Shown: positions 8,954 through 31,917 of the stretch, piece by piece
Position numbering within the stretch: position 1 is the stretch's first letter
Layout of the letters: each line of letters starts with the position of its first letter
Assembly: GCA_026129095.1 (NCBI GenBank)
Contig: JAHCIT010000007.1
Coordinates: 186,001 to 219,939, forward strand
Direction: 5' to 3'
From: Deltaproteobacteria bacterium
GTDB taxonomy: Bacteria; JAGRBM01; JAHCIT01
Length of the DNA stretch: 33,939 nucleotides
Notes under the pieces: model-generated
Seen by the model: the letters and a program-made list of their open reading frames with translations, nothing else
Databases searched by the model: none
What the model was told of the DNA's origin: nothing
Translations under genes and position numbers: made by a program

Positions 8954-9697
8954 ATGGGAGACCCGCTCAAAACCGTCCTGGATCAGGCCGACGCGCTTCT
9001 GAAGCGGTGGCAGGCCTTGCTCCCCCTTGCCCCGGATGCGCTGGCGAAACTCCGGCAGCATTGGGATGTCATTCACACCTACAATTCGAACGCGATCGAA
9101 GGAAATACCCTCACCCTCGGCGAGACGAAAGCCGTACTTCTCGACGGAATCACGATCAGCGGTAAACCGCTTCGTGAAATTCTTGAAGCTACGAACCACC
9201 GGGAGGCGATGGGGCTATTGTACCGTCTCGCCGGGTCGCGCTCCCCGGTCACGGAACGGGAGATACTGGATCTTCACCGGATCATCCTGACTGGCATCCA
9301 GTCGGACGACGCCGGTCGATACAGGACGGTCGGAGTCAGAGTCGCCGGTTCAAAACATGTTTTCCCGAATGCAGCCAAAGTCCCGGCGCTGATGTCTGAT
9401 TACGTTACCGGCATCAGTTCCGAAGGCGATCACCCGATAAGAATCGCCGCCAGAGCCCATTACCGGTTTGTCGCCATCCATCCCTTTGCAGATGGCAACG
9501 GGCGAACAGCCCGGCTACTCATGAATCTGTTTCTGATGCGGAGTGGATATCCGCCTGCCTGCCTGCCCATCGAACGGCGCGGTGAATATTACGATCTGCT
9601 GGAAGCGGCTCACAACGCCGGAACGGAACGGTTCGAACTGTTCATCGCCGAGTGCGTACGCGATTCATTGGAAGATGCCCTGCAAGGGCTTGAATGA
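8954..9697 (+). CDS. Fic family protein (AMPylase)
   Basis: Canonical HPFADGNGRTAR; N-terminal inhibitory SNAIEGN motif. Confidence 0.95.
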   Translation: MGDPLKTVLDQADALLKRWQALLPLAPDALAKLRQHWDVIHTYNSNAIEGNTLTLGETKAVLLDGITISGKPLREILEATNHREAMGLLYRLAGSRSPVTEREILDLHRIILTGIQSDDAGRYRTVGVRVAGSKHVFPNAAKVPALMSDYVTGISSEGDHPIRIAARAHYRFVAIHPFADGNGRTARLLMNLFLMRSGYPPACLPIERRGEYYDLLEAAHNAGTERFELFIAECVRDSLEDALQGLE

Positions 9698-13606: not shown

Positions 13607-14293
13607 TCATTTCGGTCTGATGGGCTCTACGCACTCTGGCTTATCATTCTTCGGGTCGTTGACGATACGGCTAACCGGTAATGCTTGCATCATGTCCGCC
13701 GATAGCGGCACCAGTATCGGTTTCAGATCATCCGCCTTGGTTTTCGGATCAATCCACTTCCTGGCTTCGGACGGCGGCAGTATCACCGGCATCCGGTTGT
13801 GGATCGGGGCCATGAGGTCATTCGGCTCGGTTGTGAGGATCGTGCAGGTTTCGAGTTCGCTGCCGTCCGGGGCCTGCCAGTGTTCCCAGAGGCCGGCCAT
13901 CGAGAACAGCCCGCCCGCTTTCATCGTGATGTGATAGGGCTGTTTCGGTCCCTTGCCTCTCGCCTGCCATTCGTAGAAGCCGGTCGCGGGGATCAGGCAA
14001 CGCCGGTGTTTGAACGCCGACCGGAACGACGGCTTCTCGTGCGCCGTCTCCGCTCGGGCGTTAATCATCCGGTTCCCGATGGCCGGATCTTTCGCCCACG
14101 ACGGAACGAGCCCCCACTTCACCGGGACCAGCTCAGTCTTGCCACTCGACGGCGACACCCGGACGATCTCGACCGGCTGCGACGGCGCGATGTTGTAGCG
14201 GGGCGCGACCTTGTGGCTCAGGTCAAAACCGAGGAGATCAGAGTATTCCTCCCAGGTCAGATCGTCTGCATTGCTGGTAAAACGGCCGCACAT
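13607..14293 (-). CDS. SOS response-associated peptidase (SRAP, YedK/HMCES family)
   Basis: MCGRF start (Cys2), PRYNIAPSQ, INARAET, RRCLIPATGFYEW, IHNRMPVIL. Confidence 0.96.
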   Translation of the reverse strand: MCGRFTSNADDLTWEEYSDLLGFDLSHKVAPRYNIAPSQPVEIVRVSPSSGKTELVPVKWGLVPSWAKDPAIGNRMINARAETAHEKPSFRSAFKHRRCLIPATGFYEWQARGKGPKQPYHITMKAGGLFSMAGLWEHWQAPDGSELETCTILTTEPNDLMAPIHNRMPVILPPSEARKWIDPKTKADDLKPILVPLSADMMQALPVSRIVNDPKNDKPECVEPIRPK

Positions 14294-14437
14294 AGGTTCT
14301 CAAAACCTTAGCAGTTTCAGCCACTTCCGGGAACTGTGCCGCTACCTGACACACCCCCGTTCTAAGATGGGGCGGGTGCGGGATTGACCTGTCCGATGCT
14401 TTCGGTTTATTTACGGTATCGGTAAGTGAGGTGGTAT

Positions 14438-15052
14438 ATGGGTCTTTCCGCCCAGGAACTGCTGGCCGTTCTGCCGCCCGGTGTGGTTACACGCGGCGGC
14501 CTGATTAAAACAACCGGAGGGGTCTGGGACCGGGCCGAAACGGCCGGGCGGCTTGTGGAACTCTCCGGGGTCGCGGCCCTCACGATGGCCTTCCGGCTGA
14601 TTCGGGATTCCCAGAAGGCGGGCGATCCGGCCGCCTGGGTTGGAACCGCCAGTTCGATCTTCTTCGCCCCTGACGCGGTAGCTGGCGGCATTGACCTGAA
14701 CTCGCTCGCCGTCGTCCGGCTTCGGAATTCACGCGATATTCCGCGGGCGGCGGAACGGCTGCTCCAGTCCGGGGCGTTCGGCGTGGTCGTGATTGATCTG
14801 CCCAAAGAGGCCGATGTCCCCATGCCGCTCCAGTCCCGGCTCGTTGGGCTTGCCCAGACGCACGACACGGCAGTGGTGTTCGTGACGGCGCGGCCAAGGC
14901 CGCTTGGATCGCTCGTGAGCCTTCGGGCGGAGACGCGGCGGATTGCCGCCGGGCGCCGGCGATACCGGTGCGAGCTTGAGGCGGTGAAGGACAAGCGGCG
15001 CGGGCCGGGATGGGTTCGGGAGACAGACTGCCGTGGACCAGCCGGACTCTGA
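14438..15052 (+). CDS. imuA: ImuA / RecA-like protein
   Basis: GRLVELSG (degenerate P-loop), GIDLNSL, AERLLQSGAFGVVVID; first gene of imuA-imuB-dnaE2; ATG after GAGGTGG. Confidence 0.8.
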   Translation: MGLSAQELLAVLPPGVVTRGGLIKTTGGVWDRAETAGRLVELSGVAALTMAFRLIRDSQKAGDPAAWVGTASSIFFAPDAVAGGIDLNSLAVVRLRNSRDIPRAAERLLQSGAFGVVVIDLPKEADVPMPLQSRLVGLAQTHDTAVVFVTARPRPLGSLVSLRAETRRIAAGRRRYRCELEAVKDKRRGPGWVRETDCRGPAGL

Positions 15053-16535
15053 AACCCGCTGGGCGTGCGTGAACCTGCCGGAGCTTCCGCTCCAGATCCT
15101 CGTACGCGCCCATCCTGACTGGCACAAACTGCCGGTGGCGGTGGTTGAGTCGGACAAGCCGCAGGCGTTCATTCTTGCCGTGAATGAAAGCGCACGGCGC
15201 AACCGGATCATTCCGGGGATGCGGTATGCGGCGGGGTTGTCGCAGTCGAGGGAGCTTCGCGCCGGGCCGGTCGGCAGGCCGGAGATCGAGACGGCTGTGA
15301 AACTGGTCGGCGGCGAGCTGCGCCGGTTCAGTCCGGAAGTGGAGCCCTCAGATGACGAACCGGGAATCCTCTGGCTGAACGCCACCGGTCTTGAGCCGGT
15401 CACGCCGTCGCTTCCCAAATGGGCATGGTCCATTCTGGATACGCTGAGGGCCAAGGGGTTTCGGTCGAACGTCGCCGTCGGTTTCAGCCGGTTCGGGAGT
15501 TATGCAGCCGCCAAGACGCGCCCCGGTGTCACGGTGTTTCCGTCACTCAAAGACGAAACGGCAGTCGCGGGTTCGGCGCAGCTCGACCGGCTTGGTCTCG
15601 CCCCAAAGCTTCTCTCGCACCTGGCAAAGCTGGGTGTTGTGACCGTCAGGGACTTTCTAGGGCTCCCGCCGACGGGCTTACTCGAACGATTTGGTCCCGA
15701 AGCACAGCGGTTTCACCGCATGGCGACCGGCGAAGCCTGGAAGCCGCTCGCGCCGGAATCGCCCGTGGAAGCTCCCCGGTCGTTGCTCCTTCTCGATCAC
15801 CCGGAGACCGACTCAACCCGGCTTCTGTTCTTTATCCGCCGCCAGCTTCATCCGCTGCTCTCGGAACTTGCGGCCCGGTATCAGGCCCTTAGTGAACTGA
15901 GGGTCCGGTTCGCCCTTGAGCGAAAGCTGACTTGGCGTGAAGCAGTCCGTCCGGCATTCCCGACGCTGGACAGCGTAGCGATCCTCGATCTCGTGCGCCT
16001 GACACTGGAACGGACGCCGCTCCAGGCGCCGGTCCGGGAACTGGAACTGACCGCCATTGGTACACCAGCCGAGCAGGAACAGCTCCGGCTGTTCAATGAG
16101 AACCCACGCCGCGACCTCCGGGCGGCGGCGCGGGCCTTTGCGAGGCTCCGGGCCGAATACGGAGAAAATGCCGTCTCTCGCGTGGTGCTCCGCGACGGCC
16201 ATTTGCCGGACGGCCGATACTCGCTGGAACCGCTCCAGGCCTTACCCCTGCCGAAGGATTTGCCCGAAGCTGATCCGGCCCTGATTCGCCGGATTTACGA
16301 CAAGCCGGTCGCGCTCCCGGTCCTGCCCGGACGGGAACTTTCCCGGAATCTTCTCAGGGCCTTTATCGATGGTGCGATTGCCAGAACAGCCGGCCCGTTT
16401 CTGTTCGAGGGCGGCTGGTGGCACCGGGATACGGACCGTGAATACCACCTGGTCGAGACCGTCAACGGCGAGATCGTCTGGGTTTTCTACGACCGCAAGC
16501 AGTCCCGCTGGTTCCTGCACGGCGAGGTCCGCTGA
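15033..16535 (+). CDS. imuB: ImuB, inactive Y-family polymerase
   Basis: [26 protein letters not shown]-terminal [19 protein letters not shown]. Confidence 0.9.
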
Positions 16536-16537
16536 CC

Positions 16538-19500
16538 ATGTATGTGCCGCTCTGGTGCAAGACGAACTATTCGTTCCTGGAAGGGGCGAGCCACCCAGAG
16601 GAACTGATAGAGACGGCTCACCGGCTGGGCCTGCCCGCCATCGCGGTTACCGACCGGGACGGTTTGTACGGGATCGTCCGGGCGCATGTCCGGGCGAAAG
16701 AGTTGGGTATCAAGCTGATCGCTGGTTCCGAAGTCACTGTGCCCGGTATTTCGCCGGTCGTCCTGCTGGCGAAAGACCGGCCGGGATACGCAAACCTCTG
16801 CCGCCTGATCTCAAAGGGGCGGCTCCGCAAGCCCAAGGGCGAATCGGAAGTGACCTTGGCGGAACTCTGCGAACACGCGGAGGGTCTGTTCTGCCTGTGC
16901 CGGAGACCGGTTGAAGCCGCCGATAATCTAAAGGCCGCCTTCGGGCTTCGCCTTTATGCACTCCTCGCTCGTCACCGTGTGGCTGAAGAAAACGACGACG
17001 AGGTTTCGCTGAGAGAATGGGCCGTCCGCCATGGCGTCCAGACGGTTGCTGCCGCTGAAGTTCTCTATCACCAGCGTTCACGGAAACATCTTCAAGATGT
17101 ACTCTCCTGCATCCGGCACGGTGTTACGCTTGCGACCGCCGGAACCCGCATCCGCCCGAACGCGCAGAACGGTCTCATTCCGCCGGAAAGTTTCAGCCGC
17201 CTGTTCGCAGACGACCCTGGCGCAGTTCGCCGGACCGTTGAGATTGCTGACCTGTGTTCTTTCTCGCTTTCCGAGATCCGCTACCGCTATCCGGACGAAA
17301 GGCTCCCCTCCGGGCTCACGACTTCCGGGTGGCTGCGGGTGCTGGCGGCGCAGGGAGCCGCCAAGCGGTACCCGGATGGTGTGCCCGCCGACGTGACGGC
17401 CCAACTCCACAAGGAAATCTCGCTCGTCGAGGAGCTGGACTACGCCGGTTACTTCCTGACCATGTGGGAGATCGTCGAATACTGCCGGGCGAACGAAATC
17501 CTCTGCCAGGGGCGGGGATCGGCCGCGAACTCCGCTCTCTGTTACTGCCTTGGCATTACGGCGATTGATCCGGTTCGCATGGGGCTGCTGTTCGAACGGT
17601 TTCTCTCGAAAGAACGGGCGGAACCGCCTGACATCGATCTCGACATCTCCCATGCCCGTCGTGAAGAAGTAATCCAGCATGTCTATGAAAAGTACGGCCG
17701 CGACCGGGCCGCGATGGTCGCCAACATCATCCGCTACCGGGGCCGCTCGGCCGTCCGGGACATAGGCAAGGCGCTTGGTTTCCCAGAAACCGCCCTCGAC
17801 CGGGTAGCGAAACTCATGGACTACTACAGCCCGCCGTCGCCGGAACTGCTCCACCAGGCTGGTTTCGATCCCGATGCACCGGCCTGCGGGCACCTCATTC
17901 GCCTGTGCGAGGAGATTATCGATTTCCCCCGGCACCTCTCCATCCATCCCGGCGGTTTCCTGCTCGGCCATGAGCCGGTCCACGACCTCGTGCCGATCGA
18001 AAACGCGACCATGCCGGGCCGGACCGTCATCCAATGGGACAAGGAGGACGTGGAGAGCCTTGGGTTGTTCAAGGTGGATCTGCTGGGTCTTGGCGCACTG
18101 ACGATGCTCGACATCTGCTTCCGGCTGCTGAAGGAGCACCGGGGGATTGAGCTTTCGATGGCCACGATCCCGGCGGAAGACCCCGCTACGTATGACCTCA
18201 TGTGCCGGGCCGATACCGTCGGTGTTTTTCAGATCGAGAGCCGGGCGCAGATGGCGATGCTACCCAGGCTGAAGCCCCGGACCTTCTACGACCTCGTGAT
18301 CGAGGTGAGCATCGTCCGGCCCGGACCCATCACTGGCGGCATGGTGCATCCCTACCTTCGCCGCAAGCACGGCAAGGAACCTGTCACGTACCCCCATGAA
18401 CTGCTTCGCCCGGTTCTGGAGAAAACGCTCGGCGTGCCGCTCTTTCAGGAACAGGTGATGCGGCTGGCCGTTGTCGCCGCCGACTACACCCCCGGCGAAG
18501 CGGACCAGCTCCGGCGGGACATGGCCGCGTGGCGAAAGACCGGCCGGATCGAGAAACACCACGAACGGCTCGTCCAGCGGATGACTGCCAAAGGGATCGC
18601 CCCGGAGTTTGCCGAACGGGTCTTCGAGCAGATCAGGGGTTTTGGCGAATACGGCTTCCCCGAGAGCCACGCCGCCAGTTTCGCGCTGATCAGCTACGCA
18701 ACGGCGTATCTCAGGACTCATTACCCCGTGGAGTTCACCTGTGCGCTCCTTAATGCCCAGCCGATGGGCTTCTACAGTCCCTCCACGATCATCGACGATG
18801 CCAAACGGCATGGCGTGAGAGTGCTCCCTGCCGATGTCACCCTGAGTGATTGGGACTGTGCCCTCGAAAGCGGTTCTATCCGGATGGGGCTTCGCTTTGT
18901 GAATGGTCTGGGTGCGGCCGATTGGGAGAAAATGCTTGCCGGTAAACCGTTCGCGTCGTTGGCCGATTTTGTCCGCCGTACGAAGCTGGATGAAAATGCC
19001 TTGAACACCCTGGCTGAAGCCGGTGCGCTGGATGCCTTCGGGGGTGACCGGCGAGCGATGCTCTGGGAGGTGCGCGGACTCCTGAGCAGCCGGCAGTTTT
19101 CGCTACCGCTGGATACCGTCGCCGCGAATCCCGGTTTTCGGCCGCTCAACGCTTTCGAGACAATCGCCTGGGACTACCGGACAAAAGGCCACAGCACGGA
19201 GGCGCACCCCCTGTCGGAACTCCGGCCCGAACTCATCCGGCAGAGGCTCCCCGACGCCAAGACTCTGTCAGGAATGAAGCACGGCGACCGGGTCCGCTAC
19301 GCCGGTATCGTCATCTGCCGCCAGCATCCGGGGACCGCCAACGGGGTGACCTTCTACACGCTTGAAGACGAGACCGGCTTCGTGAACCTCATCGTCTGGA
19401 GGAAGGTGTTCGAACACTATTCCGTTATCGCCAAGTCGGCTTCGCTGATGGGAGTCACCGGGAAGCTCCAGTCCGAAGACGGCGTGGTCCACCTGGTCGC

Positions 19501-19567
19501 CGAACGGCTTTGGGAGCCGAAGCTCAAGATCAGGCCGGAGCGGGTGGGGAGCCGGGATTTTCGATGA
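16538..19567 (+). CDS. dnaE2: error-prone DNA polymerase DnaE2 (ImuC)
   Basis: PHP start [39 protein letters not shown], terminal SRDFR. Confidence 0.97.
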
Positions 19568-19584
19568 AACGGCTATCTAAATCT

Positions 19585-21444
19585 CTAGAATTCTTTCCCA
19601 AGTTTACGGCCTTCGATCTTTACGGCCTCCATACGTTTCGCAAGGTCAACTTGAAGCGGTTCGAGTCTACGTGTCATGTCCTCAACAAGACGTGTCACCA
19701 GTTGGGATAAAGCGTCCAAAGCCTTGAATCTGGCTTCGCTAATACGAGCCCGTCCCTCGTCGATGAGTTGCCGAAGTTCTGACTCGCGTCTGATCCGTTC
19801 GGTGTGGTGCTCTTTCACTGACAATAAATATTGATCGCGCCACACCCCGAAAGACGCAAAGAGAGAAACTATGTCAGAACGAAACACCTGCCGTTTTGCG
19901 CGCAATAGATCGGTTAACGACATAAGTTTTTTCAATCGTTCGCGGCAAAGCGATATCGCTTTCCAGAATACTAGGATCCGTCGATCTGGCCAAAAGATTC
20001 TCCGCAGAATCGAGGTCCGCGTCAATTGCGCCGCGATCTCCTTTTGATGCTGAATAATTTCGTTTCGTCCGGCCGCAAGTAAACCGATTATCACTGAGTC
20101 ATCAGGACATTCGCAGGTGTGCAGCCATCTCTGCAGATCCAATACGACTTGCCCAATTGCACTATTGTGTTGGTTTACTAATTTTGTAAGGTCCGACTGA
20201 TATCTCGCTTTTTCTGCATCAAACGTAGACTGCATTTCGTTGTTTAAACGCTTCGCCGTCTCGCCAAAACCAGCTCGTGCCTTCTCGTACTCTTCTAGTG
20301 ACGCCCGTAACGGTCGTTCTTTCAGATTTTCAGACAAAAGTCGGCCACCGATTGCGCCAAAGATTCCACCAAGAACTCCGCCAATTGCCGTCCCCACACC
20401 AGGAGCGATAAATGTTCCTATAGCAGCCCCAATTTTCCCACCTGCGGTGCCCCCAATCGCAACTCCACCAATATCAAATCCCGCATTCCCAACTGCCGTA
20501 ACTAAGTCTGTGTGGCCTTTATCTAATAGATTAAATTCCCGCCACCCGGAAAATACGGCCGTTATCCACGGAAAGTGTAAGTCGACTATGTCTGGTGAGC
20601 CCAATGCGGCGTGAGTTGCATTTGCCGCATGCTCCGTAACAGCCGCACCGGTTAGGCTATGATCAACGATAACAAGATGATCTTTACCCGAGCTTAAATA
20701 GTGAAGCAGATCATTAGCTGAAGCATGTGCATCTAGATGGAACGCACTGGCCGGCACATGCACCGCGTCTGATGGAATGACAACAGGAATATCCGGAAAA
20801 CGGGCAAAATGTCCGGCGAGCTGGTGGGCATCGGCCACAAGTTTTACGTTTACCTCATGACCGTGGAGTATCAGGTCCCAACCTGTCTGGTTAGAGGATT
20901 CGGGCCATCCAACATTTAGCCCCGCATGAACCAAATGATTAGCGACCACGACCTCGGCGAGATGGCCCTTCAGTTTATTCAGTCCTGCGTCACTTAATCC
21001 TGTCCATAATGAATGTTCATACCCCTGAATCTGTTGGCTCAAATCACCGAAAGTTCTCAGCTGAGTTCCCGACAATCTTTGCATAGCTTCGTAATATGCA
21101 CCATCAACTGTCGAAAGTTCGTGAAGCACATCTGCCGTCCGGATGACAGCTGCTTCGATACCGGCGGTGATAAGTCCGGCCCTTAATTGATCGCCAGCAT
21201 CGCGGGTATTCGAGGACATTTGGCCGATTTGCACTTCGAGTTCTGGGACTTCTTCGCAACAATCCTGAGTTGATACCCGCATCCGGAGATCGAGCGCTAC
21301 TGGATCGTATGGGTCTGGCAACAATTCATCGGCTAGTTTTTTAATCTCTGCCCCATGGCGTTTCGCTAGCCATTTATGACGACTGAATGATGCCGCAACG
21401 GCCATGAAACCTAATACAATCGCGATTTGTACGGCGATACTCAT
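19585..21444 (-). CDS. hypothetical membrane protein: N-terminal TM, nuclease-like motif, glycine zipper, coiled coil
   Basis: Hydrophobic N-terminus; KGHLAE...NQTGWDL...VNVK; GGVAIGGTAGGKIGAAIGT..GGVLGGIFGAIGG; helical C-terminus. Confidence 0.7.
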   Translation of the reverse strand: MSIAVQIAIVLGFMAVAASFSRHKWLAKRHGAEIKKLADELLPDPYDPVALDLRMRVSTQDCCEEVPELEVQIGQMSSNTRDAGDQLRAGLITAGIEAAVIRTADVLHELSTVDGAYYEAMQRLSGTQLRTFGDLSQQIQGYEHSLWTGLSDAGLNKLKGHLAEVVVANHLVHAGLNVGWPESSNQTGWDLILHGHEVNVKLVADAHQLAGHFARFPDIPVVIPSDAVHVPASAFHLDAHASANDLLHYLSSGKDHLVIVDHSLTGAAVTEHAANATHAALGSPDIVDLHFPWITAVFSGWREFNLLDKGHTDLVTAVGNAGFDIGGVAIGGTAGGKIGAAIGTFIAPGVGTAIGGVLGGIFGAIGGRLLSENLKERPLRASLEEYEKARAGFGETAKRLNNEMQSTFDAEKARYQSDLTKLVNQHNSAIGQVVLDLQRWLHTCECPDDSVIIGLLAAGRNEIIQHQKEIAAQLTRTSILRRIFWPDRRILVFWKAISLCRERLKKLMSLTDLLRAKRQVFRSDIVSLFASFGVWRDQYLLSVKEHHTERIRRESELRQLIDEGRARISEARFKALDALSQLVTRLVEDMTRRLEPLQVDLAKRMEAVKIEGRKLGKEF

Positions 21445-21688: not shown

Positions 21689-24600
21689 TCACGCCGCCCA
21701 CTTCTCGGCGAACAATTCCGCCTGGCTGAGGACCGTCTGGATCGCCTTTTCCTGTTTGTCGGGTGGATAGCCGTAGCGTTTCAGGATCACCTTCACGAGG
21801 CTGCGTAGTTTCGCGCGGACGCTTTCCTTGACGGTCCAGTCGATAGTGGCGTTTTTGCGGACCTTTTCGACCAGCTCGCGGGCAATATTCCGTAACGTGT
21901 CGTCGCCCAGCACCTTTACGGCGCTGTCGTTCACTTCCAGAGCGTCGTAGAAGGCCAGTTCGTCATCGGAGAGACCAAGTTTGTCACCCCGGTCCTGCGC
22001 CTTCCGCATCTCCTTGGCGAGTTCAATCAACTCCTCGATCACCTTGGCGGTCTCGATGGCCCGGTTCTGGTAGCTTTTGACCGACTTCTCCAGCATCTCG
22101 GAGAAACTCTTGGACTGGACGAGATTGCGTTTCGACCGCTGCCTGATCTCGTCGTTCAGGAGCTTCTTGAGCGTCTCTAGTGCCAGATTCCGGTGCGGCA
22201 TCCCCCGGATTTCCGCCAGGAACTCGTCGGAGAGAATCGAGATATCCGGTTTCTTGAGGCCGGCTGCCGCGAAAATATCGATCACGCCGGTCGGCGCCAC
22301 GGCACTGGATACCAATTGACGGATGGCGTGTTCGATATCCTCCGGGTCGCGGGTGGAGGCGGTCCCGGTCTTCGCCAGTGCGCCCTGAACCATCTGGAGG
22401 AACGCCACCTCGTCCCGGATAGCGAGCGCGTCCTCATGGGGGGCGGCCAGCGCGAACGCCTTCGAAAGGTCCGCCACCGCTTTCAGGAACCGGGAGCGGC
22501 CGTCCTCAAGACCGATCACGAAATCGAGCACCATCGGGAGCAGCGCAAGCTGTTCCCTCGGTTTCCCGATCACCTGCCGGTATTCAAACCCATGAAGCAG
22601 GTGCTGGCAGATCTCGAACTTCTCCTTGAGGACGGCGACCGCCTCCGCCTGATCGACTGCCGTGCTGCCCTGTCCGCCGCTCTCCGTATAGGTGGCGAGC
22701 GCATATTTCAGCTGGTCGGCGAGCCCGAGGTAGTCCACCACGAGACCGCCCGGCTTGTCCTTGAACACCCGGTTCACCCGCGCGATCGCCTGCATCAGAC
22801 CGTGACCGCGCATCGGCTTGTCCACGTACATCGTGTGCAGGCAGGGTGCGTCGAAACCGGTGAGCCACATATCCCGCACGATCACGATCTGGAACGGGTC
22901 GGCCGGGTTCTTGAACCGCTTGGCCAGATCCTCGCGCCGGGGCTTGTTGCGGATATGGACCTGCCAGTCGGGATTGTCGTCGGCGGAGCCGGTCATCACG
23001 ACCTTGATCCGCCCCTTGTCGTCCGAGTCGTCGTGCCAGCCGGGGCGAAGCGCCGTGATCGCCTTGTAGAGGTCCACGCAGATCCGGCGGCTCATGCAGA
23101 CGACCATCGCCTTGCCGGACATGGCCGAAGTGCGGTTCTCGAAATGCTTCACCAGGTCTTCCGCGATCAGTTTGATCCGCTTCTCGGAACCGACCAGTGC
23201 TTCGAGCGCCGCCCACTTGCTCTTGAGCTTTTCCTTGCGGGAGGTCTCTTCGTCCTCGGTAATTTCGTCGAACTCGGCGTCCACCCGAGGCTTCTCGCTG
23301 TCTTTAAGTTCGAGCTTGGCGAGTCGGCTCTCGTAGTAGATCGGCACCGTCGCGCCGTCCAAAACTGCCCGCTGGATGTCGTAAACGCTGATGTAGTCGC
23401 CGAACACGCTGCGCGTGTTCTTGTCCGACAGCTCGATCGGCGTCCCGGTGAAGCCGATGAACGAGGCGTTCGGGAGCGCGTCCCGCATATGCCGGGCGAA
23501 CCCGTCGATGAAGTCATACTGCGTCCGGTGCGCTTCGTCGGCGATCACCACGATATTGCGCCGGTCGGAGAGCATCGGGAACTTCTCGCCCTTCGCTTCG
23601 GGCATGAACTTCTGGATCGTCGTGAAGATCACCCCGCCGGACGCCCGCGTGAGCAGTTCCCTCAGGTCGCCACGGTCCTTCGCCTGCTGCGGTTTCTGGC
23701 GCAACAGCTCGCTGCACCGGCTGAAGACGCCGAAAAGCTGGTCGTCCAGGTCGTTGCGGTCGGTAATCACCACAAGCGTTGGGTTCTCCATCGCCGGATG
23801 CTGGATGACCCGTCCGGCATAGAACGTCATCGTGAGGCTCTTGCCCGACCCCTGGGTGTGCCAGACGACCCCGGCGCGGCGGTCCTTCTTCGTCGCCGTA
23901 ACCGTGGCCTCCACCGCCGTCCGGACCGCATGGAACTGGTGGTAGCCGGCGATCTTCTTGATCGTGGCTGCGTCCTCCTGCTCGAAGACGATGAAATAGT
24001 GCAGATAGTCGAGAAATCTCTCCTTCTCGAACAGCCCGCGAACAAGGACCTCCAGTTCGAGGAGCCCCTGCGGCATGTCGGTCTCGCCCCGGATCGTCCG
24101 CCAGGGGTTGAACCGCTCCTTGTCGGCCGTGAGCGATCCGACCCGCGCGTTCACGCCGTCCGACACCACCAGAAGCTCGTTCGGGCCGAAGAGCGACGTG
24201 ATCTGCTGCTTGTAGGTCTGGAGCTGGTTGAAGGCGGTCCAGATATTGGCCTCTTCGTCGCCGGGATTCTTCAGCTCCAGCACGGCGAGCGGCAGGCCGT
24301 TCACGAACACGACGATATCTGGCCGCCGGTTCATCCGGTTCTCGATCACCGTGAACTGGTTCACGGCGAGCCAGTCGTTCCGGTCCGGCCGGTCGAAATC
24401 GATCAGCGCGACCTTGTCGTGCCTGGTGCCGCCCCCGGACAGCAGGTATTCGACATCCACGCCTTCCACGAGCAGCTGGTGGAACGCCCGGTTTGTGCCG
24501 ACGAGCGACGGTGCGCCGATCCGCTGGATCTTCCGGAATGCCTCGTCCAGCGCGTCAGCGGGGATCTTGGGGTTCAGCCGCGCCAGCGCGTCCCGCACCC

Positions 24601-24742
24601 GGCCTTCAAGCAGGACTTCGGAAAACTCTTTACGCTCCGGTCTCGGCCCTTCCGGTTCGATGTTCGGACCGTATTCGACCGAATACCCCAGCCCTCGGAA
24701 CCACTCCAGGCATGCTTCTTCGAGGTGGGATTCGGTAACCAT
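21689..24742 (-). CDS. hsdR: type I restriction endonuclease subunit R
   Basis: [21 protein letters not shown], Walker [36 protein letters not shown]. Confidence 0.97.
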
Positions 24743-25665
24743 TACTTAGATTTGGGTGTGCTGGCTGCGTCCGCGCGAGTTTTTGCTGGAGTCTTCTTCA
24801 CTCGAACCTTCCTCCCGCCGCCACCAGTTACGACTATTGCTCTCCAGTCGTTAATCCCGCTTCGGTCTAATTCACTTTGAAATATATCTCGAGTGGTAAA
24901 TGCTTCCGTCTGATATATAAGCGAAATGAATCTCTTCCATTGACCAGGCTTATACCCATTTGCGTCCTCCAGAATTCCTGAAAACGCGACCTTCAGCTCC
25001 TCTTCTTTATCTACGAATTTGAGCTCGACGGCAACGTGTGAATCGAGCAATCCGAAATCCGGTTCAAATCCCTTGATTGGCCTCGATATCTTGGGACGAT
25101 CAACATAATCGACGTATTCCGTCGATAACCATGCTCTCGCGAGTTTATGTAATTCAGGCTCACTTTTAGGCTCAGCACCAAGTTTTTTTGTATAATGTCC
25201 TAAACTTTCAAGCCTTCTTGATAGTCCTCTAAAGGCTTCCTCCTCAACTGCATCCTCTTGTGTTTTGCCCTTCAATGCCGAAGCTCCACCAACTAACGCT
25301 ACTACAGCATAATAGTAAGTTACTAAAAGGTTGAGTTGATGACTGTGCAAACAGTCATAGTCGGGTACCGGCTCTATATCCTCAGGATTTCTGCCACCAT
25401 TACTTTCTTCCCATTTCGCTTTATTATCAGTTAATAGTGTATTAAATCCATATGCTTCCATCATCGCACATAATGATAAAAATACCTGTTGTAGATCACC
25501 GTAATATCTTTCGTAATCGAGGTCTTTCTCACTATCACCTAAATCATCGTCCCCATAATGAAAGAAATACGGGTCTAGCCGATTTAGCGATTTCTGAGCT
25601 TCATCTATAGTTTCTTTGACGCCAGCCAATGCGATTATTAACGCTTTACGGATATCTCCGTTCAT
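24742..25665 (-). CDS. PD-(D/E)XK nuclease-domain protein
   Basis: EPELHKL...[17 protein letters not shown]; lower GC; TAATG overlap with hsdR. Confidence 0.65.
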
Positions 25666-25699
25666 ACAGCACCCTAATTTTTCATATATTACAATGTCA

Positions 25700-26662
25700 C
25701 TAGGTCACGATCCTTGAATATGGATTTTTATCTATAATTGCGGATCTGATTTTTTCTCTCAGCACATTTTTGAAATCAGAACCCTTATTTAAGGCCAATA
25801 CAATTTCTTCAAGAGTACAAAGCACGATCACTTTTTGTTGAAGGGCATCCCGGCAAGTGCTGATTGCTGGTTCAGTAAAATCACTCGCAGATATAATTAA
25901 CGCTCTTCCTTCCGCACGATGATACACCCTTACCAAATGTTCGGATATTTGCGGCACGCCTAGTGGTGTATTCCACCACTTCATCTCGACAAAATAAACG
26001 TGTCCATCAAGATCAATTACGCCATCAATCTGCTCAACGACGCCTTCGCCCGATCCACCGACTACAGTGAAGGCGTCCCTTATGCCTATATCGAACGCTT
26101 TGAATAACGCATTTAGAGCTGGCTCAAGAGCTTTGCCCCGTTCTTGCGGATTACTTATCGCGAAGATTCGGAAGAGGTCGTTTTTTGAGGTCTCAATTGC
26201 TAGCGCTCGTCGGCGGATAGCTTCCTTCTTCACCTGTTCTTGATCGAGACGCAGTTTTCTCTCGCGTTCTCGTTCAATATCTATCCTCGTGAAGCTATCT
26301 TTGACGTTAACTAATTCACGTACCTCCGTGACCAGCCCACGAGCCTTGAGCCGATCTTCGTCCCAGCAGACCGAGAAGTTTTCGAACTCCACTACGCGCT
26401 TAAGAACCTCCCTACGCTCTCTTAGGCAAACTTCCCCCTTTTGGTTGAGGGCGGTCAGAATCTGACGGACAATATCGAATTTATTTATGCTTTTGGGCTC
26501 GCGCTCCCACTGTTGGAACGGACCAACAACGAGTGCGTCCGAAACACCAGCACCCTTGAAGAAGAGGAAAACGTCCTTTTTGGCTTTGTTTAAAAGCGGG
26601 ATCGTGCTGATAAGCAGATTCATCAGCTCTGGTGGATAGTGGAACGTTATGTCGACGCTCAC
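25700..26662 (-). CDS. Mrr-like restriction endonuclease
   Basis: QERGKALE, EQIDGVIDLDGHVYFVEMKW, ALIISASDFTEPA; helical N-terminal region. Confidence 0.8.
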   Translation of the reverse strand: MSVDITFHYPPELMNLLISTIPLLNKAKKDVFLFFKGAGVSDALVVGPFQQWEREPKSINKFDIVRQILTALNQKGEVCLRERREVLKRVVEFENFSVCWDEDRLKARGLVTEVRELVNVKDSFTRIDIERERERKLRLDQEQVKKEAIRRRALAIETSKNDLFRIFAISNPQERGKALEPALNALFKAFDIGIRDAFTVVGGSGEGVVEQIDGVIDLDGHVYFVEMKWWNTPLGVPQISEHLVRVYHRAEGRALIISASDFTEPAISTCRDALQQKVIVLCTLEEIVLALNKGSDFKNVLREKIRSAIIDKNPYSRIVT

Positions 26663-26751
26663 ACCCGCTCCCTATTTAGTCTCGCTATCTCATTCGGCCT
26701 ATCCCGGAACCACTCCAGGCACAGCTCTTCGAGATCGGATTCGGCGACCAC
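26659..26751 (-). repeat. hybrid hsdR-5'/hsdS-3' spacer repeat 1 (mini-ORF MVAESDLEELCLEWFRDRPNEIARLNRERV)
   Basis: 26705-26751 matches hsdR start 24696-24742 at 38/47 nt; ends in GGAGCGGGTGTGA versus hsdS end GGAGAAGGTGTGA. Confidence 0.85.
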
Positions 26752-26770
26752 TATTCAAATGCCTCTTAGC

Positions 26771-27817
26771 TCATTTACCTTGCTTCAATCGCTGGAGAAG
26801 ATTTGGCAGCCGATTCCTAACACTATAGGCAGTTTCAACGTTAGGGTTGTTTTTCGGAGCCGACTCCAAGCGAGATATCTGCTCCGAAGACAGCGTCTCT
26901 AATAACTCCAGAAAATCCATCGACGAATTTGCTTGGGTATAGGATGGAGACTTTTCAAAGCAATTGATCATGGAATCAATTAGCGCCTCACCAATCGCCT
27001 TTTGTTTAAGCATTACCGAAACAATTTTTCTCGATATATCAGCTGGCTTTTGGCCTTTCCCAGCCAATGCCTGATATTTGCTAACAAACCCAACAGGGTC
27101 TGCACCAGTTCTCACTGGTATGATCAGCACTCCACGGCCCAGAGCGAATCCAATTTCCTGATTCGTCCAGAAGCTACTTCCAAAACTTTCCGTGACCAGG
27201 AGAATCATCACATGCATTGTTTTCAATGCACGCTCAATTTCATCCTGCCAAGGCTTGGTGACTTCTATATCCTCATGCGCGACGAAACTCGAAATTCCGC
27301 ATGGCAATAACGCATCTTTAAACTGAGTGGCCTTCTCTTTGTGCTTCGCTTCGTGGCTGATAAATGCCCGTAGGTGCCCTGAAATCCATATTTTATTTAT
27401 GTCTTCGTCGGACACCGGAAGAGCGGAGGTTTCTTCAACAAGAACTCCCGAACGCTCTTTCCAGTTTTTAAATTCCGGCCCCGCCCGAAGCTCTAATTGC
27501 ACTTTTGCAACATGCTCATGCGGCGTGTTGTCAATTTTATTGAAGCCCTTTTCTAGCTCTTCTTCAATCGAAGCTTTTGAATCGAGAGTTTCGAAATATA
27601 TTTCTGAGGGAATAGCCATGCGCACAAGATGCCCGGATTGTCCCCCATCCCAGCCATCATAGTCGTATTCCTCTTCAACCGAGTGAGTGGAGTTTACCAG
27701 AATCTTTTGGAGCAGCATACGTCCCTTACGCCCATAATAGTCCGATAAGATCGCCTTGAGCGTTTCCAGCTTTCCTGGGAGCTGGAATTTCGGTCGTTCC
27801 TGCTCCTGTCCCCTCAC
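26771..27817 (-). CDS. TIR domain protein
   Basis: RAFISHE, SFVAHEDIE..PWQDEIERAL, SFWTNQEIGFALG (catalytic Glu), IIPV. Confidence 0.88.
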   Translation of the reverse strand: MRGQEQERPKFQLPGKLETLKAILSDYYGRKGRMLLQKILVNSTHSVEEEYDYDGWDGGQSGHLVRMAIPSEIYFETLDSKASIEEELEKGFNKIDNTPHEHVAKVQLELRAGPEFKNWKERSGVLVEETSALPVSDEDINKIWISGHLRAFISHEAKHKEKATQFKDALLPCGISSFVAHEDIEVTKPWQDEIERALKTMHVMILLVTESFGSSFWTNQEIGFALGRGVLIIPVRTGADPVGFVSKYQALAGKGQKPADISRKIVSVMLKQKAIGEALIDSMINCFEKSPSYTQANSSMDFLELLETLSSEQISRLESAPKNNPNVETAYSVRNRLPNLLQRLKQGK

Positions 27818-27915
27818 ACCCGCTCCTCTGCCAGATTCACTACATATCCCAACAGCTCACGGCACCACTCCACGCAAGTTTCTTCGTGGTGGGATTTGGT
27901 GACACTTCTCGTCAT
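27814..27915 (-). repeat. hybrid hsdR-5'/hsdS-3' spacer repeat 2 (mini-ORF MTRSVTKSHHEETCVEWCRELLGYVVNLAEERV)
   Basis: 27860-27906 matches hsdR start at 38/47 nt; 27814-27838 matches hsdS end 28982-29006 at 20/25 nt. Confidence 0.85.
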
Positions 27916-28985
27916 TGAGTGACCCTTAGCGGATGAAGCGCTGCCCAAATGCTCTCGGCACTCTCATTTTTAAGTGCGTCTTTAATTTTTTCTACGGCCT
28001 TAATCGAATACCGTTTAAATCCAGCGTTGCCAATTCTGATTTCCTTGTAGCAATCAGGCTGCTGGCGGATTCCTAAATGATCCACAACCGCAACAGCCTT
28101 CGGCACAGTCAACGACACCTTTTCGGCCAGCTGTTTTGCACCAAGACTGTAAAAATCGAGTTCATTGATGCGCTTCACGCCCACGACAGCCGCGTCGGGT
28201 GTCCCCTCTGGAACAAGCTGAATCGGAATGCCTTCCTTCTTAGACAACCGCAGGGATATCGCTGGACCTGTCGCATCCGAGCGAATTTCGACCGCCGCAA
28301 CACCTGGGAATAATTCTGCCCAACTTTTTCCCCTGAGCAATTCCTCTCCGATATGCCGCAATTCAGAGGAACTTGGCTGTCCCTTTTGTCCACGGATTGT
28401 CGCGTCAAGGATAACGAGGGGACGGAGGCGGGCTTCCGCTTCGATCTGGCGCCGCCGCTTGGGTCCGAGAAGTTTCTGGATTTCCTTCGCCTCTGTGTCG
28501 AACATCGAAGCTAGAGTAGTTGGTGGAGTCGTCGATATCGGAAGAACTCTGTTTGGCAGGTAATCCGTTAAGTTTTGATCAAATACATTTTTTAATAGAT
28601 CTCTAAATAGCGTCACCCCAGATTGTTCATGAAGGTATAGTTGGCCTTCTGAGATCTCCAAAAGGTGATGCTGCGCGGCGTCACGAAGACCATTGATAGT
28701 TTGCAGTGTTAGGGCTTGCTCATCTGTCAGAAACTTAATCCGTCCATCACTCAATCCTCGCCGCACACAAGCGTCAAAACCGATCGTTTCCTTGGCCCGT
28801 TTCTCGCGAATTCGCCCCCCTCGGTAGACGATCGCGGCCTTCAGCAGCATTTCGAACGCATGGTCAATCTGAATCAGCGTCGAACTTACCCGTCCGCGAT
28901 CGTGTGGTCGATTAAAGAGTTCGATGCTCAGCAAAAGAGAGTCGCAAGCCTTTTCAAGGAGTAGCTTGGCTTCTCGTTTCATCAC
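27912..28985 (-). CDS. DUF3644-like (HEPN) protein
   Basis: LLLSIELFNRP, AFEMLLKA, RxxxxH motif RDAAQH; start overlaps hsdS stop. Confidence 0.75.
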   Translation of the reverse strand: MMKREAKLLLEKACDSLLLSIELFNRPHDRGRVSSTLIQIDHAFEMLLKAAIVYRGGRIREKRAKETIGFDACVRRGLSDGRIKFLTDEQALTLQTINGLRDAAQHHLLEISEGQLYLHEQSGVTLFRDLLKNVFDQNLTDYLPNRVLPISTTPPTTLASMFDTEAKEIQKLLGPKRRRQIEAEARLRPLVILDATIRGQKGQPSSSELRHIGEELLRGKSWAELFPGVAAVEIRSDATGPAISLRLSKKEGIPIQLVPEGTPDAAVVGVKRINELDFYSLGAKQLAEKVSLTVPKAVAVVDHLGIRQQPDCYKEIRIGNAGFKRYSIKAVEKIKDALKNESAESIWAALHPLRVTQ

Positions 28986-30268
28986 ACCTTCTCCCCCGCC
29001 AGCTTCTCCGCGTCCTTCACCCGCAACTCCCCGCTCATCAGCTTCGGCAGCAGCGTGTCGCGAAGTTGCATAAGCGTCTTGGTTTCCTGGAGATTTGCCA
29101 CCATTCTCCGATAGGCGGAACCAACAGAACTCATAAAAGAGTCCAAAACTGCTTTTACAGGAACTATCGCGGGAATCGGGCGGAAATTCCCTTTGCTAAT
29201 CTCTTGAAATGTAGTTCCGTTGGCACGACCGATAATCACATCCAGGTTTGATCGCGCCCAATTCAACACGTAGAGGTTCGGCAGTAAGCCGTCACATACC
29301 ATCGCGATATATCCCTGATTGATTGCGACCGGAACTTCCGAGACGGCGAGGTATCCAATCGGAGCGCGCGACGAGAGCAGCACCGTTCCAGCGGGCAATA
29401 GGCCCGAACTGATTCCACGCAGCCCCGCCTCTGTGATCATCCGCTCCGTGTCCAGCAGAACCGGGCTATTCAGATTCGACAGGTCTTTTGGAGTCGTCCA
29501 GTGGTACGTCCCACCGACCCAATATTCAGGTTTTTCCGTGCTCGGCGTGCTCCCGCCAGCTATCCGCACGCAATCATTGATGGGTTGAACCCTCCACCCC
29601 TTCGGGATCTTCCCTAGCGGCGAATCCTCAAACGAGTCGGGGAACAGGGCGGCCGTGGCGTCGTCCATACCGAACGGGCGGCGGCCTTCGGCCTTCGCCC
29701 GGACCGGGTCGAAATCCACGAACCAGCTCTGGAAGATCGCCCTGGCGGTCTGCTCCAGCGTCTCGTTCATCTTCCGGTTCAGCTCGATCTTGTCGTCGAG
29801 GGCGCCGAGGATCGAGGCGATGGCAGACCTCATCCTTCTCGAAGGCCAAGGAACCTGAAATTCGGCAATATCAGACCTCGAAAGATTGGGAAATACTGAA
29901 CCAGCGCAGAGTGACAACAGCCGATCTAGATCATTCACAATTGCGAAATACAAAAAACGCGTATCGGTGGTATCGGATTTTGCCCTGAAAGCACCAAGTC
30001 CTCGCCCAATGCAGTACTCTTTATCAGCCCAGTTCATCCGACCGGTGGTCGAACCGCGAACACAAAACAAGATATCGCCCACCCTGCAAAGTCTGGTTGG
30101 AGCGGTGGTCCAAAGTTGCGGATCAGGATGAATCGAACCAAATTCTGTCGGGCCATTTAGAAGCGGCACCCCACTACCCGAATTATTATATGTATCGCCG
30201 GGCGGGGATTGACCCATTTCGATATTTGCGACATCACCAATTTCCTGGATCGAGATCTCTTGGTTCAT
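28982..30268 (-). CDS. hsdS: type I R-M specificity subunit S
   Basis: Two TRDs; conserved [49 protein letters not shown]. Confidence 0.96.
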
Positions 30269-31917
30269 ACAAGACCTCGTAAAATCTCCCGAATCTGCCT
30301 CTCCAGCCGGGCACTTTCGGCAAACTGTTCTTCAAGCTTCGCCGACAGCCGCTTGATCTTCTCCTCGAACGGTTCGCCGTCGTCCTCGATATCCTCAGCC
30401 CCCACATACCGGCCCGGCGTCAGCACATGGCCGTGGGATTTGATCTCCCCCAGCTTCGCGCTCTTGCAGAAACCGGGGATGTCTTCGTATTTACCGGCGT
30501 CCTTCTCGCCCCGCCAGGCGTGATAGGTAGTCGCGATCCGGGCGACGTCGTCGTCGGTCAACTCCCGGTGAGTGCGGTCCACCATCTGGCCCAGCTTGCG
30601 GGCGTCGATGAACAGCGTCTCGCCCCGGCGGTCGCGGAACTTCCCGTTCGACTTGCTGCGTGTGAGGAACCAGAGGCAGGCGGGGATCGGGGTCGAGTAG
30701 AAGAGCTGTCCCGGCAGCGCGATCATGCAGTCCACCAGATCGGCCTCGACGATACTTTTACGGATCTCGCCTTCGCCCGACTGGCCGGACGACATGCTAC
30801 CGTTCGCCAGCACGAATCCGGCGATCCCGTTCGGCGCGAGGTGGTGCAGGAAGTGCTGCACCCAGGCGAAGTTGGCGTTGCCCGCGGGCGGCGTGCCGTA
30901 TTTCCACCGGACGTCGTCCTTGAGGCGTTCGCCTCCCCAGTCGCTCACGTTGAACGGCGGATTGGCCAGGATGAAGTCGGCTTTCAGGTCCTTGTGCTGG
31001 TCGCGGTGGAAGCTGTCGGCGTTCTCCGCGCCGATGTTCCCCTCGATCCCCCGGATCGCGAGGTTCATCTTGCAGAGCTTCCAGGTGGTGGGGTTCGACT
31101 CCTGCCCGTAAATCGACAAGTCGCCCACCTTGCCGCCGTGGGCCTCCACGAACTTCTCCGACTGCACGAACATGCCGCCCGAGCCGCAGCACGGGTCGAA
31201 CACACGCCCCTTGTAGGGCTCGATCATCTCCGTCAGCACGCGGACCACCGACCGGGGCGTGTAGAACTGGCCGCCCAGCTTGCCTTCGGCGCTCGCGAAC
31301 TTGCCGAGGAAATATTCATAGACGCGGCCGAGGATGTCCTTGGACCGGCTCTCCCGGTCGCCGAGGCCGATGGTGCCGATCAGGTCGATCAGTTCGCCCA
31401 GTCGTGTCTTGTCCAGCGCCGGCCGGGCGTAGTCCTTGTTCAGCACGCCTTTCAGGACCGGGTTTTCCTTCTCGATCGCCTCCATGGCGTCGTCGATGAT
31501 CCGCCCGATGGCGGTGTCTTTCGCCTTCGCCTGGATGTGTTCCCACCGCGCCTTGCCGGGCACCCAGAAGATGTTTTCGGAGGTGTACTGGTCGCGGTCC
31601 TCGGCGAGGTCGCGCCGGTCCTTGTCCTTGGGCAGATACAGGTCGCTCTTGGGGTCGGCAGTCTCCCGCAGGATTCCCGAGCGGCGCTCCTCGAAGGCGT
31701 CGGAAATGTATTTCAGGAAGATCAGCCCCAGGACGACGTGCTTGTATTCCGCCGCGTCCATGTTGTTGCGGAGCTTGTCGGCCGCCTGCCAGAGCTTTTC
31801 CTCGAACCCGAGGTTCGCCCCGCCGTTACTCTTGTCTTTGCCGCCGCTTTTCTTCGTCACCGCACCTTCATGCTTGGGCGGCGATTTCTCGTAAGCGGCC
31901 TTCTTCCCCTTGGGCAT
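30265..31917 (-). CDS. hsdM: type I R-M methyltransferase subunit M
   Basis: [31 protein letters not shown] (m6A motif IV). Confidence 0.97.

Follow-up and report, generated by a model that had tools for sequence, protein, structure and literature searches.

The stretch of DNA analysed here, a 33,939-nt (nucleotide) window from a Deltaproteobacteria bacterium, contains an intact type I restriction-modification (R-M) operon with a cargo bay between hsdS and hsdR, a system of known type. On the minus strand (coordinates are positions in the window), the order is hsdM, hsdS, A, scar 1, B, scar 2, C, D and hsdR, in a single tight operon. A to D are four cargo open reading frames (ORFs) of 307–357 amino acids (aa), nested between hsdS and hsdR and oriented as the hsd genes. 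Going by their sequence, the two spacers called scars are real recombination scars derived from the hsd genes. We consider it probable (about 75%) that they are seams where single-module hsdS-cargo-hsdR loci were joined, via homology on one side and an illegitimate join on the other.

Both spacers are open mini-ORFs, beginning in the hsdR frame and ending in the hsdS frame. The template of their hsdR-start copies is the first 47–70 nt of hsdR, and that of their hsdS-end copies the last 25 nt of hsdS. Scar 1 (27814..27915, minus strand), the 102-nt spacer between A and B, is a mini-ORF of 33 codons, in which a copy of the hsdR 5' end (about 27903-27853, possibly to 27836) is fused in frame to a copy of the hsdS 3' end (27838-27814). 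It overlaps both neighbours, with its ATG at the stop of A (ATGA) and with its TGA at the GTG start of B. Scar 2 (26659..26751, minus strand) is a 30-codon mini-ORF in the 112-nt spacer between B and C. Its hsdR 5' copy (26753-26705) is followed by ~30 nt of unclear origin and then by 14 nt shared with scar 1. Its start is a GTG that comes after TAG, where hsdR has TAATG, and the GTG at which C begins overlaps its TGA.

The first-pass annotation had counted 38 of the first 47 nt of hsdR as identical in both spacers, and 20/25 and 16/25 of the last hsdS nucleotides in scar 1 and scar 2, respectively. An ungapped recount returned exactly these numbers, and the peptides quoted with them are the translations. 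Over slightly longer alignments, the identity to the resident hsdR was 41/51 for scar 1 and 40/49 for scar 2. Scar 1 has lost the hsdR start codon and scored just 8.1 bits with a profile of the HsdR N-terminus, compared with 21.6 bits for scar 2. A repeat search recovered a 56-nt family with three copies, at 24696-24751, 26705-26760 (79%) and 27860-27915 (73%), and a 14-nt exact pair (26658-26671 and 27813-27826).

Chance similarity of the spacers to hsdR was ruled out by shuffling and by a genome-wide scan. The hsdR-derived parts had Smith-Waterman scores of 33 and 31, and none of 2000 shuffles reached either (mean 7.7, standard deviation 1.3, maximum 15). On both strands of the 23 contigs of the genome (3,668,516 bases), more than 30 of the 47 positions were identical only at hsdR itself (47) and at the two spacers (38 and 38), followed by two positions at 30/47. 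The hsdS-derived part of scar 1 scored 15, which was equalled by 6/2000 shuffles, and its comparison with a library of 68 hsdS ends was significant (18, null maximum 16). The guanine plus cytosine (GC) content was 0.62–0.63 in the hsd genes, 0.615 in the genome, 0.43–0.51 in the cargo genes, and 0.53 and 0.57 in the two long spacers; that of scar 1 was 0.529, as opposed to 0.46–0.51 in the cargo on its two sides. Scans for promoters and terminators found nothing in the spacers, the counts being at or below the shuffled expectation.

Scars of the same kind were found in related loci. The survey set consisted of 80 loci on genome contigs from many phyla (HsdR N-termini 53–62% identical), plus the window and three relatives, 84 loci in total. 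Both hsdS and hsdR were present in 68 of them, adjacent to each other in seven and separated by a gap of at least 300 nt in 61. Searching all six frames with two profiles, one of the 29 N-terminal residues of HsdR and one of the 40 C-terminal residues of HsdS (cut-off 9 bits), we detected ten extra HsdR-start matches on the coding strand of the bays, none on the opposite strand of the bays, and one elsewhere, a match of 9.9 bits inside hsdR. Five extra HsdS-end matches lay in bays, and two others were the true ends of fused hsdS genes. As the first-pass annotation had anticipated for related multi-cargo loci, such spacers were present in 14 of the 40 multi-ORF bays, versus 0 of the 20 single-ORF bays. 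Nine of the ten hsdR-start scars begin 6–32 nt past the preceding stop. Scar length ranged from 9 to 159 codons, and some scars had only an hsdR part or only an hsdS part. More scars were found behind C homologues in three metagenome loci (L099, L102 and L110). At the sequence level, the scars are hsd-derived, lie at module borders, recur between loci and vary in length.

The longest scar, in L031 (4276-4755), is a 159-codon open fragment of the hsdR N-terminus directly after a B-like TIR gene; past it there is one further gene, and then a full hsdR at 5995. Two hsdS ORFs (L026, 3215-5143, and L096, 5444-7414) extend about 200 residues beyond the conserved C-terminal motif and look like fusions of hsdS with cargo. 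The best HsdR matches outside the window's genome come from many phyla. That genome also carries a second type I R-M locus (contig C20, about 94070-102471), 33–35% identical, with a 184-aa ORF between hsdM and hsdS, ORFs of 97 and 352 aa after hsdS, and an hsdR ORF of 1269 aa with an N-terminal extension.

The genes that meet at the seams of one locus occur alone in others. The proposal that the cargo of the window had been captured at hsdS/hsdR junctions predicted lone homologues there, and these were found for three of the genes: a homologue of A is the sole gene between hsdS and hsdR in L043 (8.8e-140), one of B in L071, and one of C in L112. Further homologues of B are present in L061 and L031. 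Relatives of C (43–67% identity) were found in 29 metagenome loci, and in at least nine of these the C homologue stands directly after hsdS. For a wider comparison, 142 cargo ORFs were clustered and their representatives searched with Pfam and PADLOC. A RhuM/Fic gene with a PDDEXK_3 gene is alone in L032 and preceded by a scar in L033. SIR2 with HerA is alone in L053, and in L077 is followed by a scar and then by PDC-M24A+B. Abi_C, the lone cargo of L069 and L097, stands in L088 before a scar and a PDC-S02 gene. AbiP2 occurs by itself in L082 and lies beside hsdS tails in L035 and L084, and the scar of L047 falls between a DUF1848 gene and PDC-M03A+B. None of the multi-gene candidates of PADLOC was split by a scar in the surveyed loci.

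Cargo content also varies among relatives, again as had been foreseen. In G001, a member of the same family, the hsd genes are 82–89% identical in DNA and the cargo differs from that of the window, the order being hsdS, a PDC-S54 gene, a 72-nt copy of the hsdS end, a 424-aa gene of unknown function, a PDC-S11 gene and hsdR. The stop of this hsdS-end copy overlaps the next start, and the copy has no hsdR piece with it. In G005 hsdS adjoins hsdR, and G044 has three other genes as cargo.

Cargo lies between hsdM and hsdS in 28 of the 61 loci, and remnants were found in this slot too. A copy of the hsdM 3' end directly precedes hsdS in L033 (3801-3914, 50.6 bits), L040 (4193-4285, 39.9 bits), L027 (7833-7895, 20.2 bits) and, weakly, L020 (7620-7697, 9.5 bits). 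These hsdM remnants are the same kind of seam at the hsdM/hsdS slot, a gene keeping the end of its old upstream neighbour.

The joining of loci that we propose would proceed as follows. The parents would be ordinary hsdS-cargo-hsdR loci, and at each seam the hsdR start of one would have been joined to the hsdS end of another. One end of the incoming DNA would cross over homologously in a conserved hsd gene, and the other end would be joined illegitimately, giving the product hsdS-A-hsdR'/hsdS'-B-hsdR. A join within a cargo gene or the region of its start would ruin the module; viable joins would fall outside both, so that the two modules keep working. The survivors would therefore retain pieces of the old neighbours, in the arrangement cargo, hsdR start, hsdS end, cargo. 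Homology-facilitated illegitimate recombination, defined in the laboratory in naturally transformable bacteria, combines one homologous anchor with one illegitimate join. It would yield exactly this product, and the arrangement of the window, in which hsdR 5' meets hsdS 3' and the conserved hsd genes flank the bay, is consistent with it. The first-pass annotation had the cargo stacked by recombination through the conserved flanks. The stacking is supported, and the role of the flanks changes: a join of hsdR 5' to hsdS 3' links non-homologous ends, so the flanks can serve only as a homologous anchor and not as the site of the crossover. With the resident genes taken as stand-ins for the parents, the two sides of the join in scar 1 have a GAA in common.

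Several observations weigh against this reading. The hsdS-derived part of scar 2 scored 10, which was reached by 559/2000 shuffles and is not significant alone; neither is its comparison with the 68 hsdS ends (12, the 95% null value being 13). This tail rests on the 14-nt exact match to the spacer between A and B, at the same place before the next start codon. The border between C and D has no scar in its 34-nt spacer (GC 0.29), although C never adjoins a D homologue elsewhere (0 of 29 loci). The locus thus consists of three units, not four. In the survey, 26 of the 40 multi-ORF bays were without a detectable scar. Scars are common in just a part of this hsdR family; they may be quickly lost, or many stacks may form otherwise. 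No scar was found in a second, independent sample of 55 viral-contig loci (40 with hsdS and hsdR, 16 of them multi-ORF), a more divergent set with many near-duplicate loci, in which 33 of the 40 true hsdR starts reached 9 bits. Its single match (L137) was rejected, being the point where an interrupted hsdS truly ends. The survey loci are mostly from metagenome-assembled genomes, in which short repeats can be misassembled. The argument from in-frame fusion, given below, comprises three or four independent junctions (chance 1/27 to 1/81). Finally, no parent-offspring pair close enough for mapping breakpoints or microhomology was found, so that the illegitimate join is deduced.

Among the alternatives, the mini-ORFs could be kept mainly for a function of their own, as adaptors for translational coupling or as leader peptides setting expression levels for the next cargo gene and hsdR. 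In both mini-ORFs of the window the frame stays open between a start of hsdR type and a stop of hsdS type, the latter overlapping the next start (GTGA). When the mini-ORFs are counted, stop and start overlap at six of the eight borders of the operon, including hsdM/hsdS (ATGA), hsdS/A and D/hsdR. Hybrids outside the window show the same continuity of frame. In L080 and L063 a 66-codon hsdR start continues in frame into an L032-type hsdS tail (DNA score of 33 against the L032 hsdS end, null maximum 14), and in L033 a 28-codon hsdR start is in frame with a tail of that type (16 versus 14). The hybrids whose hsdS tail reached significance in DNA comparisons (scar 1, L033, L080) are all in frame, and neither an out-of-frame hybrid nor a DNA-detectable hsdS tail was found behind the seven other hsdR-start scars. 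In nine of 12 scars a mini-ORF ends no more than 26 nt from the next start, and the scars made of hsdS or hsdM tails abut it. These numbers are small, however, and an in-frame hsdS tail ends at its native stop by construction. The peptides are not conserved, varying in length, with an insertion in L063 and substitutions in L080, and other borders manage without mini-ORFs. A function of the mini-ORFs as the main cause of their retention is improbable in our view. Within the joining of loci, in-frame fusions may have been retained since ribosomes pass from gene to gene, and the few in-frame mini-ORFs whose ends coincide with the next start or lie close to it are thin evidence of selection for translational coupling.

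A slightly smaller chance is given to local tandem duplication, in which the interval from the hsdS end to the hsdR start would have been copied within one locus by slippage or unequal crossing over, and the cargo then replaced. It would fit the unusual Cys at residue 11, common to all three hsdR-start copies, the resident HsdR and that of G001, and the fact that scar 1 is closest to the resident hsdR. Scar 2, on the other hand, is closer to hsdR of G001 (43/48 identical, 89.6%). Over 184 nt the scar of L047 has 94.6% identity with the real hsdR start of L063, compared with 84.8% between the full-length hsdR genes of the two loci, and the HsdR of L047 itself differs from the scar in its N-terminal residues. 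The scar of L080 also matches foreign hsdR types better than its own. Judging from these identities, at least some scars derive from other hsdR alleles and not from the resident gene. Moreover, A, B and C are unrelated to each other, each is found alone in loci of other phyla, and the GC content of the cargo differs from that of the hsd genes. All this argues against copying within one locus and is consistent with the joining of separate loci.

Integrons have the tyrosine recombinase IntI, attC sites that fold as single strands, and co-oriented, mostly promoterless cassettes read from one end. The first-pass annotation had described the bay as an integron-like array, and its repeats as possible means of excision or shuffling. 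In its strongest form, this idea makes the hybrid of hsdR start and hsdS end a site for a recombinase encoded elsewhere, at which cassettes are inserted, excised and shuffled. The likeness is in the row of co-oriented genes in one operon, with a repeated unit between them and contents that differ between relatives. Both junctions of the window are also similarly bounded (about 47–70 nt of hsdR and 14–25 nt of hsdS), and L080 and L063 share a junction while differing in upstream cargo. Unlike attC sites, the window's repeats are decaying pieces of the flanking genes, as seen in the loss of the hsdR start codon from scar 1. No excess of structure was found when both strands of both spacers were folded as DNA (z of -0.42, -1.34, -0.20 and +1.06), and the repeat search returned no inverted repeat within a spacer. 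No integrase, recombinase or transposase family of Pfam was found in the 27 window ORFs scanned, in agreement with the original remark that no integrase was in view; the remaining genome was not scanned for intI. The variable length of the scars, the occurrence of hsdR-only and hsdS-only ones, and the lack of a fold signal and of an integrase family speak against a dedicated site, as do the many borders without a scar (C/D, the 26 multi-ORF bays of the survey and all 16 of the viral-contig sample), and we regard this explanation as the least probable. The spacers have exact runs of at most 9 and 17 nt in common with hsdR, so that repeat-mediated deletion would be expected only rarely in this locus, and active excision or shuffling through the repeats is unlikely.

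The junction that L080 (2342-2577) and L063 (4537-4824) have in common is a case of its own. The two loci share the downstream module (51% protein identity) but not the upstream cargo, which is unrelated, and in DNA the hsdR portion of their scar is about 88–90% identical to real hsdR starts. Together, these features hint at the use of a long scar as a homology arm, its hsdR portion looking as if refreshed by later crossovers. Type I R-M operons would then be integrase-free landing pads with several slots. Each scar would retain one arm like hsdR and one like hsdS, leaving all slots bordered by homology to ordinary hsdS-cargo-hsdR loci; these arms would allow homologous swapping slot by slot, while the mini-ORF keeps translation coupled. 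We put this forward as a tentative extension, with the odds against it.

The three hsd genes are intact ORFs on one strand, with full-length Pfam and PADLOC matches. HsdM (30265..31917, minus strand, 550 aa) is the type I methyltransferase subunit (Pfam N6_Mtase, 3.3e-110, and HsdM_N, 9e-29; PADLOC MTase_I, 1.3e-231). HsdS (28982..30268, minus strand, 428 aa), the specificity subunit, matched Methylase_S of Pfam in two stretches (3.5e-32) and Specificity_I of PADLOC (9.6e-107). The restriction subunit HsdR (21689..24742, minus strand, 1017 aa) matched HSDR_N (2.8e-52), SWI2_SNF2 (3.7e-83) and T1RH-like_C (6e-135) of Pfam, and REase_I of PADLOC (1157.6 bits).

All four cargo genes are on the minus strand, and their assignments to defence families are predictions from sequence matches. 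Cargo A (27912..28985, 357 aa), whose start overlaps the hsdS stop and which has an alternative ATG at 28982, is a DUF3644 protein (Pfam, 5.7e-14) of the PADLOC candidate family PDC-S19 (1.9e-155). Cargo B (26771..27817, 348 aa) is a TIR-domain protein (TIR_2, 1.2e-14, residues 152-241). Cargo C (25700..26662, 320 aa) has a C-terminal Mrr-type restriction endonuclease domain (Mrr_cat, 1.7e-06, residues 183-287). Cargo D (24742..25665, 307 aa), whose stop overlaps the hsdR start (TAATG), probably has a DpnII/MboI-like PD-(D/E)xK nuclease fold: its only Pfam match, DpnII-MboI (0.0028), was below the cut-off, and its nearest ESM Atlas clusters carry PF18742 (DpnII-MboI) with scores of 0.97–0.98. 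A word-indexed search of 5.8 billion proteins returned cargo D alone, tblastn against 72,556 plasmids gave no match, and a search at the phylum level (six genomes) found the window copy only. We had considered C and D as an obligate pair, which was ruled out by the lack of a D homologue in all 29 loci with a C homologue. In the reading we favour, the bay holds three independently acquired units of defence type, namely A, B, and C together with D, the last being two proteins with a nuclease fold.

Defence genes embedded in type I R-M, BREX, DISARM and Hma loci have been used for discovery as "guilt by embedding" (Payne, Hughes, Fineran and Jackson, bioRxiv 10.1101/2024.01.29.577857). According to that preprint, 96.7% of the embedded genes have the same orientation. 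Like the loci reported there, the window has non-R-M genes nested between hsd genes in the same orientation; cargo A belongs to PDC-S19, a candidate family of that preprint, and many cargo genes of the related loci belong to its PDC or HEC families. Unlike our analysis, its main text catalogues the embedded content, and describes no leftovers of flanking genes at seams and no stacking of modules. None of the words "recombination", "remnant", "exchange" and "hotspot" is used in that main text. In the literature searched, we could not find a description of hsdR or hsdS remnants between embedded genes. Embedding itself is already known; its recurrent signature of assembly, the seam scars, is apparently undescribed in print.

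In EcoprrI, the anticodon nuclease PrrC is nested in a type I operon. None of the PADLOC matches of A–D at E ≤ 0.01 was to the PrrC model. TgvAB is a tested defence system likewise nested in a type I operon (PMC11411939). So far as these loci are described in the sources used, they resemble the window in having a co-oriented accessory defence system between hsdS and hsdR (or between hsdR and hsdS), and differ from it in having one module per locus instead of three stacked units with seams. Phase-variable type I systems (for example epigenetic invertons, PMC7672463) also have partial hsdS copies repeated in the locus. In such systems the copies are inverted and include target-recognition domains, and an invertase flips them, which alters specificity, whereas scars of the window type consist of the last 14–72 nt of hsdS, in direct orientation, before unrelated genes.

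Just downstream of hsdR lies a 619-aa ORF (19585-21444, minus strand) of low GC content (0.46–0.52), with a glycine-zipper match and weak PADLOC matches to LeoB/LeoBC (6.1e-07 and 1.1e-04). Lying outside the operon, it may represent another passenger of defence type. Beside the island there are genes for a SRAP peptidase (13607-14293, minus strand) and a DNA polymerase III of alpha type (16538-19567, plus strand), and a 500-aa ORF without a Pfam match (15033-16535, plus strand). We take this group (13607-19567) to resemble an imuB-dnaE2 mutagenesis cassette. A Fic gene is found at 8954-9697.

Embedding in restriction operons is already used for finding new defence systems, and in the literature searched we found no account of the route by which nested genes arrive and are stacked. 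The seam scars would be a record of this assembly, telling which genes came together and from what kind of locus. They would also be a practical marker of module borders, which helps to decide which neighbours of unknown function work together. The model is testable: with conserved restriction genes as homology anchors, defence genes may accumulate without a dedicated recombinase. If scars do act as arms for slot exchange, nature would have in these operons a simple counterpart of the integron.

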